Shown: positions 54,401 to 57,400 of the stretch, piece after piece
Position numbering within the stretch: the first letter of the stretch is position 1
Layout of the letters: each line of letters starts with the position of its first letter
Source: Escherichia coli
Lineage (GTDB): Bacteria; Pseudomonadota; Gammaproteobacteria; Enterobacterales; Enterobacteriaceae
Assembly: GCF_003790525.1 (NCBI RefSeq)
Contig: NZ_CP033635.1
DNA: 64,000 bases
Direction: 5' to 3' (one strand)
Made by a program: the position numbers

Positions 54401-57400
54401 CTTTTCTGGCGCTTTATGCACGCGAACTTAACCTGATGTCGGCAGCCAGTAATTTCCTGCTTTGCTACGCTATCTTCCTGATGATCTGCCGTACCTTTAC
54501 CGGCAATGTCTGCGACAAAAAAGGACCGAAATATGTGGTTTACCCTTGCCTTGTGTTCTTTACGGTTGGACTGGTGGTTCTCGGCTACACCCAGGGAAGC
54601 ATAATGATGGTTGTTTCTGGCGCGTTGATTGGTATCGGGTATGGTTCCGTGACGCCAGTTTTTCAGACGCAGATTATCAGTTCAGTGGAACCGCATAAAA
54701 TCGGTGTCGCAAACTCCCTCTTCTTCAATGCGATGGATGCAGGCCTGGCGCTGGGAGCCTGTGTGATGGGGATGATGGTTGCACATACTGGCTACCGAAT
54801 GATTTATCTGCTGGGTGCACTATTAGTGGTAGTGGCTGGTGGAGTCTATGAGCTGCAAATGAAGGGCAAAAGCGGTGTCATGCTAGTAGCGGCAAAAGAA
54901 ATTCATTAATACGACACGTTTCATTAAGATTTTTCGCAGGTAACCACCTATAGTCATTGTCGTAAATAAAAAATGACAGGCGATAGGGTATGGCAGTTTC
55001 AGCAAAGCACGACGAATTTAATCACTGGTGGGCAACAGAGGGCGACTGGGTTGAAGAGCCTAACTATCGCCGTAATGGTATGAGCGGGGTGCAATGCGTC
55101 GAGCGCAACGGCAAAAAGCTATATGTAAAGCGCATGACGCATCATCTGTTTCATTCCGTACGTTATCCGTTCGGTCGACCAACGATTGTCCGTGAGGTTG
55201 CGGTAATTAAAGAACTGGAACGGGCTGGTGTCATCGTGCCGAAGATCGTTTTTGGTGAAGCGGTGAAAATTGAGGGGGAATGGCGCGCGTTGCTGGTGAC
55301 TGAAGATATGGCGGGGTTCATCAGCATTGCTGACTGGTATGCCCGGCATGCAGTATCGCCTTATTCTGACGAAGTACGGCAAGCCATGTTGAAAGCAGTG
55401 GCGCTGGCGTTTAAGAAAATGCATAGCGTTAATCGTCAGCATGGCTGTTGTTATGTTCGCCATATCTATGTGAAAACAGAAGGTAAGGCAGAAGCTGGAT
55501 TTCTTGACCTGGAGAAAAGTCGTCGCCGCTTGCGTCGTGATAAAGCGATTAATCATGACTTCCGCCAGCTGGAAAAATATCTGGAGCCGATCCCTAAAGC
55601 GGACTGGGAGCAGGTGAAAGCGTATTACTACGCCATGTAATCGTTGTAGGCCAGATAATACGCGTAAGCGTCGTATCTGGCGCTAGTACCCGATCACAAC
55701 TCGATTTCAATATCGCCTTTTGCCCGGCAACAACAGGGCAAAATTTCCCCCGGCTGAATAAAGGCTAACGGTTCGGCAATCCAGTCCACCTGGCCTGCAA
55801 CAAGGCGTGTGCGACAGGAACCGCAGTAACCTTCGCGGCACTGATACTCAACCGCCACATTGTGGGATTCCAGCGCCGCCAGAAGGGAAAGGTGTTCATC
55901 CTGGCACAGCAGCTGTGTGCCAGTGATGCGCAGGGTAACGCGGGCCATCAGAGCTGGAAGTTACTCAAATCGTCGGTGTCCACTTCCGCGTCAATCTGCC
56001 CGACCAGATAAGAACTCACTTCCACTTCCTGCGGAGCAACCTGTACGTTATCAGACACCAACCAAGTGTTGATCCACGGGATCGGGTTGGAGCGCGTCTG
56101 GAACGGCAGATCCAAACCGACTGCCTGCATACGGATATTGGTGATGTATTCAACGTACTGGCAGAGGATGTCTTTATTCAGACCAATCATCGAACCATCA
56201 CGGAACAGATAATCCGCCCAGTCTTTCTCTTGCTGTGCCGCCTGGACAAACAGGTCATAGCACTCCTGCTTACATTCTTCGGCAATTTCCGCCATCTCCG
56301 GATCATCCGCGCCGCTGCGCAGCAGATTCAGCATATGCTGGGTGCCGGTCAGGTGCAGGGCTTCGTCGCGGGCAATCAGGCGAATAATTTTGGCGTTACC
56401 TTCCATCAGTTCGCGTTCTGCAAAGGCAAAGGAACAAGCAAAGCTGACGTAGAAGCGGATCGCTTCCAGCGCGTTAACGCTCATCAGGCAGAGATACAGT
56501 TTTTTCTTCAGCTCGCGCAGGCTAACGGTTACGGTTTTACCGTTAACGGTGTGGGTACCTTCGCCCAGCAGATGCCAGTAGCTGGTCATTTCGATCAGTT
56601 CATCGTAATAGCTGGAGATCCCTTCCGCACGTTTCTGGATCTGCTCGTTGGTGACGATATCGTCAAAGACAACTGACGGATCGTTAACGATATTACGGAT
56701 GATATGGGTATAGGAGCGGGAATGAATCGTTTCTGAGAACGCCCAGGTTTCTACCCAGGTTTCCAGTTCCGGGATCGAGATCAGCGGCAGCAGTGCCACG
56801 TTCGGGCTGCGACCCTGAATGGAGTCCAGCAGCGTCTGATATTTCAGGTTGCTGATAAAGATGTGTTTTTCGTGTTCAGGTAGTGCCTGGTAATCGATAC
56901 GGTCACGAGAAACGTCAACTTCTTCCGGACGCCAGAAGAAAGAGAGCTGCTTTTCGATCAGCTTTTCGAAGATGTCATATTTTTGCTGATCGTAGCGAGC
57001 CACGTTAACCGGCTGACCAAAGAACATCGGTTCTTTCAGCTGATCATTTTTCGTCTGTGAAAAGGTGGTATATGCCATGAATGTGTCCTGTTGGGAGTTT
57101 AATGCCGGATAAGGCATTTTACGCCGCATCCTGTGCCTGATGCGACGCTGGCGCGTCTTATCAGGCCTACAAACCGAGCCGTATGCCGGATAAGGCGTTC
57201 ACGCCGCATCCGGCATCTCAATATCAGATCTTACATGCGCCGCTTTCGCAGCCATCGTCCTGGATTGACGGCACCAGATCGTCTTGTGCGTCTTCTGCAC
57301 CGTCACGGGTGTTCTGATAATACAGCGTTTTAACCCCGAATTTGTAGGCGGTGAGCAGGTCTTTCAGCAGTTGCTGCATCGGCACTTTTCCTGACGGGAA

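Follow-up and report, generated by a model that had tools for sequence, protein, structure and literature searches.

Knowledge of REP and BIME elements goes back to 1984. REPs, which are non-autonomous, are associated with TnpA_REP, the REP-associated transposase; in BIME-1, it is the long L motif that IHF binds. BIME-1 elements (RIB/RIP) are intergenic and built of inverted REPs, a Y and a Z1 unit together with the IHF-binding L motif, and most BIME-1 rows in the Topo-Seq data have no gyrase cleavage sites. REPs of the Y type measure 35 nt and those of the Z2 type 37 nt, with a GTAG 5' of the palindrome, which the REP transposase needs, and an AA/GC bulge (PMC8266576). The nrdA-nrdB spacer of Escherichia coli K-12 is itself listed as a BIME-2 ('nrdA>-nrdB>') in Table DS3 of Sutormin et al. 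2018, where Topo-Seq places two gyrase cleavage sites in it with Cfx, three with Rif+Cfx, none with microcin B17, and three with oxolinic acid; the same table carries the entry 'Espeli, Boccard 1997: 2 cuts' for this element. Gyrase cleavage is more frequent at Y REPs than at Z2 REPs. At the RNA level, general evidence presents REPs as barriers to 3'-to-5' exonucleases (PMC6061677, PMC5927463). For example, the malE-malF stabilizer (Newbury et al. 1987, as described in PMC5927463) consists, like the array considered here, of intercistronic REP hairpins following the first gene. REPs have also been linked to translation, a REP that lies no more than 15 nt from a stop codon being described as stalling the terminating ribosome, with cleavage of the mRNA and a lower protein yield (Liang et al. 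2015, cited in PMC12306157); nrdAB appears in the citing paper, in a one-line citation, as a reported transcript with a REP at such a distance.

The window analysed here is a 64,000-nt stretch of an E. coli contig (NZ_CP033635.1), in which the nrd region matches the annotated nrdA/nrdB locus of E. coli strain 165 at 100% identity (Table 1). An earlier note on this DNA had described three REPs in alternating orientation, at 57102-57215, filling most of the spacer between nrdA and nrdB. This description holds, with a measured span for the REPs and linker of 57102-57214 (113 of 145 nt, or 78% of the spacer), within 1 nt of the first estimate, and the BIME label that it gave can be sharpened to BIME-2. 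At the sequence level, the spacer is confirmed as a three-REP BIME-2 allele in which a Y unit (REP-C), an inverted Z2 unit (REP-B), and a degenerate Y-like unit (REP-A) alternate, joined by a 10-nt linker and by abutting heads, neither of which holds an L motif or IHF site, and in which the number of units varies by strain (three, five, or seven REPs, in steps of 88-nt units). The three units, at 33-36 nt, fall within the range of REP imperfect palindromes (~29-37 nt, forming a stem-loop), and the cluster is entirely extragenic, beginning 3' of the nrdA stop codon and ending short of the ribosome-binding site of nrdB. The cluster is thus real but ordinary, a shorter variant of an element already described in K-12, and it has little weight as a discovery since published lists of BIME-2 elements already include the spacer, along with its gyrase cleavage. 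The K-12 RefSeq record as used here shows no annotated REP features. Added here are the polymorphism of the spacer in 5,426 genomes, the BoxC-like form without REPs in 31% of them, and the hairpins found at this site in 69 of 71 other Enterobacterales whose spacer is at least 40 nt long. Taken as a whole, the account that we consider probable is that of a BIME-2 REP array that serves as a gyrase target, that impedes termination at nrdA through REP-C, and whose REP number is loosely constrained.

Table 1. Features of the nrdA-nrdB-yfaE locus and of the REP array in its first spacer (window coordinates)
Feature	Coordinates	Length	Strand	Basis or remarks
nrdA CDS (ribonucleotide reductase 1 alpha)	57224..59509		minus	ORF list; C-terminus DDGCESGACKI, then stop
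nrdA stop TGA	57226-57224		minus	sequence
Gap, nrdA stop to first REP, UAUUGAGAU	57215..57223		minus	sequence and hairpin fold
nrdA-nrdB spacer	57079-57223	145 nt	minus	minus-strand operon
REP-C, Y type	57181-57214	34 nt	minus	mRNA strand GCCGGATGCGGCGTGAACGCCTTATCCGGCATAC, also given as GCCGGAUGCGGCGUGAACGCCUUAUCCGGCAUAC
Tail-to-tail linker GGCTCGGTTT, 'S'-type of BIME-2	57171..57180	10 nt	minus	sequence
REP-B, Z2 type	57135-57170	36 nt incl. GTAG	minus	mRNA strand GTAGGCCTGATAAGACGCGCCAGCGTCGCATCAGGC; inverted relative to REP-C and REP-A
REP-A, degenerate Y-like	57102-57134	33 nt	minus	ACAGGATGCGGCGTAAAATGCCTTATCCGGCAT, also given as ACAGGAUGCGGCGUAAAAUGCCUUAUCCGGCAU
nrdB ribosome-binding region	57076..57089		minus	AGGA 57089-57086, ATG 57078-57076; outside the REPs
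nrdB CDS (ribonucleotide reductase 1 beta)	55948..57078		minus	ORF list; start as annotated in identical strain 165
yfaE	55948..55694		minus	ORF list

Several lines of evidence indicate that these repeats are not a product of chance. Across the 64-kb window, the only two exact matches to the head motif GCCKGATGCGRCG fall in this spacer, one of them in REP-C, against 0.67 expected at one mismatch or fewer; the tail motif has its sole exact match in the window here, together with one 1-mismatch match, against 0.45 expected. The spacer RNA is predicted to fold at -66.4 kcal/mol, compared with -43.4 for shuffled sequences (z = -6.6). Among the single hairpins, those of REP-C (-24.3 kcal/mol, z = -5.1) and REP-B (-21.9 kcal/mol, z = -5.4) are strong and that of REP-A is weak (-13.6 kcal/mol, z = -2.5). 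As expected of a high-copy REP, a query of this sequence type finds a median of at least 38 matching places per E. coli genome. The AA/GC stem mismatch is present as well; REP-B folds with a 2x2 AA/GC internal loop, and the same positions are found in REP-C, which reads GAT-AA-GGCG ... CGCC-GC-ATC on the GTAG strand. REP-A has a degenerate head that directly abuts the head of REP-B with no linker (57134/57135), and its end lies 12 nt upstream of the nrdB Shine-Dalgarno sequence.

The K-12 BIME-2 shares with the window allele its locus, its flanks, its Y and Z2 units, and the degenerate last unit beside nrdB, but its spacer is 233 nt long and holds five REPs. The two align unit for unit otherwise, so that the window allele corresponds to the K-12 one minus a single 88-nt Y-S-Z2 unit, an alignment that rules out a lack of homology between them. 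The first REP differs in its loop, which is TGAAC in the window and TAAAC in K-12, and in its tail, where the window carries CATAC and K-12 carries CCTAC; the opposite strand of REP-C therefore reads GTAT and the GTAG is lost. The CATAC tail lengthens the RNA stem by 2 bp, so that the distance from the stop codon to the stem is 7 nt in the window, compared with 9 nt in K-12. The earlier note had further suggested that the cluster may be a gyrase or an IHF binding site. The gyrase half of this suggestion is supported by the published in vivo cleavage of the K-12 allele, by analogy with which the nrdA-nrdB BIME-2 of the window would also be a gyrase site, its single complete Y-S-Z2 unit remaining a target; the IHF half is not supported, as detailed below.

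In terms of gene expression, the reported stalling distance of 15 nt or less also applies to the window, where the first predicted stem begins at 57216, with 7 unpaired nt between it and the nrdA stop codon; the canonical GCC head of REP-C begins 9 nt 3' of that codon. REP-C in this allele would also impede ribosomes finishing nrdA, which would somewhat lower NrdA output relative to NrdB, and it would act in addition as a barrier to 3'-to-5' exonucleases. Decay data for K-12 temper the last of these effects. The nrdA-nrdB-yfaE operon belongs to the 390 whose mRNA was analysed for differential decay (PMC5927463). It appears there in the table of analysed operons, whereas the other supplementary tables examined, including the list of differentially decaying operons, do not contain it. 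This makes it unlikely that nrdA mRNA is strongly stabilized by the array in K-12, in contrast to malEFG, which shows clear differential decay. Neither nrdA nor nrdB occurs in the supplements of PMC7815308, examined for 3'-end maps, and a CRISPRi preprint that mentions nrdA holds nothing on the nrdA-nrdB spacer. With regard to the proposal of the earlier note that the array modulates the ratio of the alpha and beta subunits, the literature on the K-12 allele and the spacing of the hairpin make such an effect plausible but unsettled. Two separate observations speak against an effect on this ratio: 31% of E. coli genomes have a REP-free allele, and the operon does not occur in the list of differentially decaying ones. 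The spacer was also scanned for an internal promoter and for an intrinsic terminator, with neither found: there is no promoter-like site in or beside the spacer and no intrinsic-terminator-like site on its minus strand, the hairpins there having no U-tract.

Variation at this site is extensive. Among the 5,426 E. coli genomes, the spacer is highly polymorphic, with three, five, or seven REPs, a Y/Z1 form, or a BoxC-like repeat, and 1,685 of them (31%) have no REP and carry the BoxC-like repeat instead. Because the three-REP sequence is a subset of the five-REP one, which makes a direct count impossible, the share of the three-REP allele was estimated by sampling the match lists at even intervals; only 49 records match the three-REP allele of the window at 99% identity or more, and the three-REP state arose at least twice. 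The GC-rich palindrome of the REP-free alleles, which may belong to the BoxC family, sits in this very spacer and likewise folds into a stable hairpin, but it is unrelated in sequence, has no GTAG, and begins its strong stem ~30 nt after the nrdA stop codon. With respect to its naming, its median copy number is 15 per genome, compared with 32 in the literature for BoxC, and there is an exact 21-nt match beside fabI. Because 31% of the genomes are REP-free and have their strong hairpin ~30 nt from the stop codon, the function of REPs at the nrdA-nrdB site, whatever its nature, is dispensable or replaceable, and the number and identity of REPs here would not be tightly constrained.

Beyond E. 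coli, a stable hairpin of unrelated sequence is found in 69 of the 71 other Enterobacterales species with a spacer of at least 40 nt, whereas Photorhabdus, Xenorhabdus, and Providencia have 12-23-nt spacers with no structure. It may be, and we put this forward tentatively, that selection in Enterobacterales keeps a structure and not a sequence, namely a stem-loop just after the nrdA stop codon that unrelated modules have supplied repeatedly. The modules concerned would be lineage-specific simple hairpins, REPs of different families, and BoxC-like palindromes, and within E. coli this would make the alleles with three, five, or seven REPs, with Y/Z1, or with BoxC interchangeable. If this were the case, natural alleles would set different NrdA:NrdB ratios or gyrase loads and would offer a ready allelic series for studying how intercistronic repeats tune an essential enzyme. 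The modest value of the locus is that of a natural experiment, in which one essential operon carries variable numbers of REPs, another REP type, or a BoxC-like repeat, and this variety could show whether the repeats tune the reductase subunit ratio or are merely tolerated.

Mere tolerance is the first alternative to be weighed against the gyrase-target and stalling account, and would make the array a neutral passenger, with selfish or decaying repeats that sit in a tolerant spacer and do not measurably alter the expression of nrdA or nrdB. The anatomy of the units is in agreement with such decay, since GTAG/CTAC is intact in REP-B only (on the mRNA strand), REP-C having GTAT and REP-A nothing comparable; these two units are probably, judging from their sequence, no longer transposase substrates, a state that fits decay and not maintenance. 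The varying copy number and repeated origin of the three-REP state, the replacement by a different repeat in nearly a third of the genomes, the entry of the operon in the analysed table only, and the fact that Photorhabdus, Xenorhabdus, and Providencia cope with short unstructured spacers all point in the same direction. On the other hand, the hairpin 7 nt from the stop codon stands at the reported stalling spacing, with nrdAB cited as a case (PMC12306157, in its one line on the subject), the K-12 allele is known to be cleaved by gyrase, and nearly all of the other species with a spacer of sufficient length keep a stable structure. Neutrality seems rather unlikely to us.

It is unlikely that the BIME works as a partial transcription attenuator, stopping some of the RNA polymerase between nrdA and nrdB in place of an older T-run hairpin that would still be present in other genera. 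BIME-associated attenuation has been described (Espeli et al. 2001, as reported in citing papers including PMC12306157 and PMC6061677), and in Kosakonia, Cedecea, and Buttiauxella nrdA is directly followed by a GC hairpin that leads into a T-rich run. The REP hairpins of the window, however, have no U-tract, and the scan detects no terminator-like site in the spacer of the window; nor does it call the hairpins of Kosakonia, Buttiauxella, and Pectobacterium, for which a terminator-like reading is a weak lead. The nrdA-nrdB-yfaE operon also passed the filter of Dar & Sorek, which excludes intergenic intrinsic terminators and substantial Rho termination (PMC5927463).

A BIME-1 (RIB/RIP) that binds IHF and bends the DNA where a transcription unit ends has in its favour only that IHF binding is known for some BIMEs in general, and is highly improbable here, being refuted at the sequence level by a middle unit that is Z2 and not Z1, by a tail-to-tail linker that at only 10 nt rules out the long L motif, by the lack of any match to the IHF consensus WATCAANNNNTTR in 57079-57223 even with one mismatch, and by the cataloguing of the K-12 element as BIME-2. 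It is just as improbable that the spacer is a small RNA gene in its own right, of the naRNA4 type (nucleoid-associated RNA derived from a REP): Rfam naRNA4 (RF02564) gives three overlapping matches in the spacer, at 53.7, 42.5, and 36.2 bits (E-values from 8.5e-08, for the best, to 7e-04), but all of them lie below the gathering score of 59.5 bits, no promoter-like site accompanies them, the region is transcribed within nrdAB anyway, and the model was built on a REP element, so that any Y-Z pair matches it and the sub-threshold matches are explained by shared REP sequence.

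The 351-nt stretch around the REP cluster is 100% identical to E. coli strain 165, in which the genes flanking it are annotated as nrdA, nrdB, and yfaE. An earlier note had placed three REP units of alternating orientation at 57102-57215, and an element-by-element reading of the spacer bears out its coordinates, count, and orientations.

Features of the nrdA-nrdB spacer in the window, and spacer alleles of other E. coli genomes
Feature	Position	Strand	Length	mRNA strand sequence or remark
nrdA	59509..57224	minus		protein end ...DDGCESGACKI; TGA at 57226-57224
nrdA-nrdB spacer	57079-57223		145 nt	
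nrdA stop to REP-C gap			9 nt	UAUUGAGAU
REP-C	57214..57181			GCCGGATGCGGCGTGAACGCCTTATCCGGCATAC
Linker between REP-C and REP-B			10 nt	GGCTCGGTTT
REP-B	57170..57135			GTAGGCCTGATAAGACGCGCCAGCGTCGCATCAGGC; inverted
REP-A	57134..57102			ACAGGATGCGGCGTAAAATGCCTTATCCGGCAT
REP-A to nrdB Shine-Dalgarno gap			12 nt	then AGGA 57089-57086, then ATG
nrdB	57078..55948	minus		
Five-REP variants			226 nt and 241 nt	
Second three-REP type			146 nt	other Y unit and linker retained
Seven-REP allele, locus L008 (ESDR8)	2493-2813		321 nt	
Y/Z1 allele, locus L005 (1410D004)	308-496		189 nt	
No-REP allele, locus L006 (Z0117EC0062)	308-395		88 nt	GC-rich palindrome CCCCTCTCCCCTTGCGGGAGAGGGTTAGGGTGAGGGG

The REP types of E. 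coli are y (35 nt), z1 (29 nt), and z2 (37 nt), each preceded by GTAG and carrying an AA/GC bulge (PMC8266576). In the window, REP-B is a Z2 unit and REP-C a Y unit, joined tail to tail by a 10-nt linker, and REP-A is Y-like, with its head fused to that of REP-B and without the tetranucleotide. The element thus has a BIME-2 architecture; BIME-1 was rejected on the Z2 unit REP-B, the 10-nt linker, and a spacer in which no IHF consensus was found with one mismatch allowed. The cluster is no chance resemblance: within the 64-kb window, the head and tail motifs of REPs are matched exactly only in this spacer. Matches with one or two mismatches lie at 680-692, 6932-6944, 11862-11875, 27985-27998, and 46680-46692 and may be other REPs or chance, the expectation at 1-2 mismatches being 0.67 (head) and 0.45 (tail) per window. 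The REP-derived Rfam model naRNA4 matches the spacer three times (53.7, 42.5, and 36.2 bits), each below its gathering score of 59.5. Folding of the spacer RNA yields -66.4 kcal/mol versus -43.4 for shuffles (z = -6.6), with single-hairpin energies of -24.3 (REP-C), -21.9 (REP-B), and -13.6 kcal/mol (REP-A). No promoter-like or intrinsic-terminator-like site was called by scan in or beside the spacer.

The element itself is already known, and the window carries it in a shorter allele: the K-12 spacer has 233 nt and five REPs, whereas the window is short by exactly one 88-nt Y-S-Z2 unit (S, short linker). ESDR8, in contrast, exceeds the window allele by two identical 88-nt Y-S-Z2 units. The existence of two kinds of three-REP allele indicates that units were lost at least twice. 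The Y/Z1 allele consists of a different REP set, combining Y-like units with CCCTACCC arms and 29-nt Z1-type units (GTAGGCCGGATAAGCGAAGCGCATCCGGC). Across 5,426 complete E. coli genomes, the no-REP allele was counted directly in 1,685 (31%), and evenly spaced samples of the match lists gave estimated shares of ~43% for five REPs, ~18-21% for three REPs, and ~5% for the Y/Z1 form. Carriers of the no-REP allele among the listed matches include one O25b:H4-ST131, one O111:H8, and one O26:H11 strain. Its GC-rich palindrome is a dispersed repeat (median 15 places per genome), which we take to be the BoxC family, a tentative name based solely on copy number (32 in the literature) and an exact 21-nt match beside fabI in K-12. 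The exact window allele is rare, occurring at >=99% identity in just 49 records. Its REP-C ends in CATAC rather than CCTAC (57181-57185), so that the other strand reads GTAT where GTAG is expected; GTAG, required by the REP-associated transposase TnpA_REP (PMC8266576), is thereby removed, and it is now missing from two of the three units. The C-to-A change lengthens the RNA stem by two base pairs, which brings the predicted start of the REP-C stem from 9 nt past the nrdA TGA, as in K-12, to 7 nt in the window.

The most likely mechanism operates in both RNA and DNA. REPs no more than 15 nt from a stop codon are described as causing ribosome stalling (PMC12306157, which cites Liang et al. 2015 for nrdAB as a reported case). 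In the window allele, REP-C would lie within the mRNA stretch to be unwound by a ribosome terminating at the nrdA TGA, so that some ribosomes would stall and the yield of NrdA would fall; the hairpins would also bar 3'-to-5' exonucleases. With respect to DNA, 'nrdA>-nrdB>' is a 202-bp BIME-2 in Table DS3 of Sutormin et al. 2018 (PMC6379681), with gyrase cleavage sites numbering 2 with ciprofloxacin, 3 with rifampicin plus ciprofloxacin, 0 with microcin B17, and 3 with oxolinic acid, and the table's remark on it reads 'Espeli, Boccard 1997: 2 cuts'. BIME-2 sites behave as strong, transcription-independent gyrase sites, and Y REPs are cleaved more often than Z2 REPs (PMC6379681). The complete Y-S-Z2 unit of the window would still be a gyrase target. 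The earlier note's interpretation is supported in part: the BIME/REP identity stands, the gyrase site is supported by the published K-12 data, the IHF site is not supported, and an effect of the REPs on the NrdA:NrdB ratio is plausible. Against a strong or specific role of REPs here, their number varies freely, GTAG is gone from two of three window units, and close to one in three E. coli genomes lacks REPs in this spacer. Moreover, nrdA-nrdB-yfaE of K-12 was among 390 operons analyzed for differential decay by Dar & Sorek 2018, a set cleared beforehand of operons in which Rho termination is substantial or an intrinsic terminator motif lies internally, and appears only in table S2, not among the differentially decaying operons of S3 (PMC5927463).

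In 80 Enterobacterales loci from an NrdB scan, the nrdA C terminus is conserved, but spacer lengths span 12-322 nt. Eight loci of Photorhabdus, Xenorhabdus, and Providencia (L061, L068, L070, L072, L077, L079, L081, and L083) have spacers of 12-23 nt without a hairpin. Among the 71 species with spacers of at least 40 nt, 69 fold at -15 kcal/mol or lower over the initial 70 nt of the spacer, a helix of 5 bp or more begins within 15 nt of the stop in 62, and 53 reach z <= -2 against dinucleotide shuffles. The sequences are unrelated from lineage to lineage: REPs of the E. coli type are confined, among the sampled loci, to E. coli and E. albertii, whereas other REPs with GTAG/CTAC occur in Citrobacter, Klebsiella, Enterobacter, Pluralibacter, and others, BoxC-like palindromes in Pseudocitrobacter and Phytobacter, and simple GC hairpins in Kosakonia, Cedecea, Buttiauxella, Serratia, Pantoea, and Yersinia. 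Some simple hairpins lead into T-rich runs and resemble terminators by eye, a weak reading because the terminator scan does not call them. The pattern across species would also fit selection for a stem-loop as such at this position, which we consider possible but less likely than not.

An antisense 11-codon ORF (57077-57112, plus strand), annotated in K-12 as yoaM (b4779), extends from the complement of nrdB's start codon to a stop inside REP-A; its product varies with the spacer allele, being longer than 40 aa with the BoxC-like allele and MNVSC* with the Y/Z1 allele, so yoaM is not conserved as a protein. A lone divergent REP (55646-55680, minus strand; GCCAGATACGACGCTTACGCGTATTATCTGGCCTAC; naRNA4 score 28.9 bits) lies at the 3' end of the nrdAB-yfaE operon, beginning 13 nt beyond the stop codon of yfaE.
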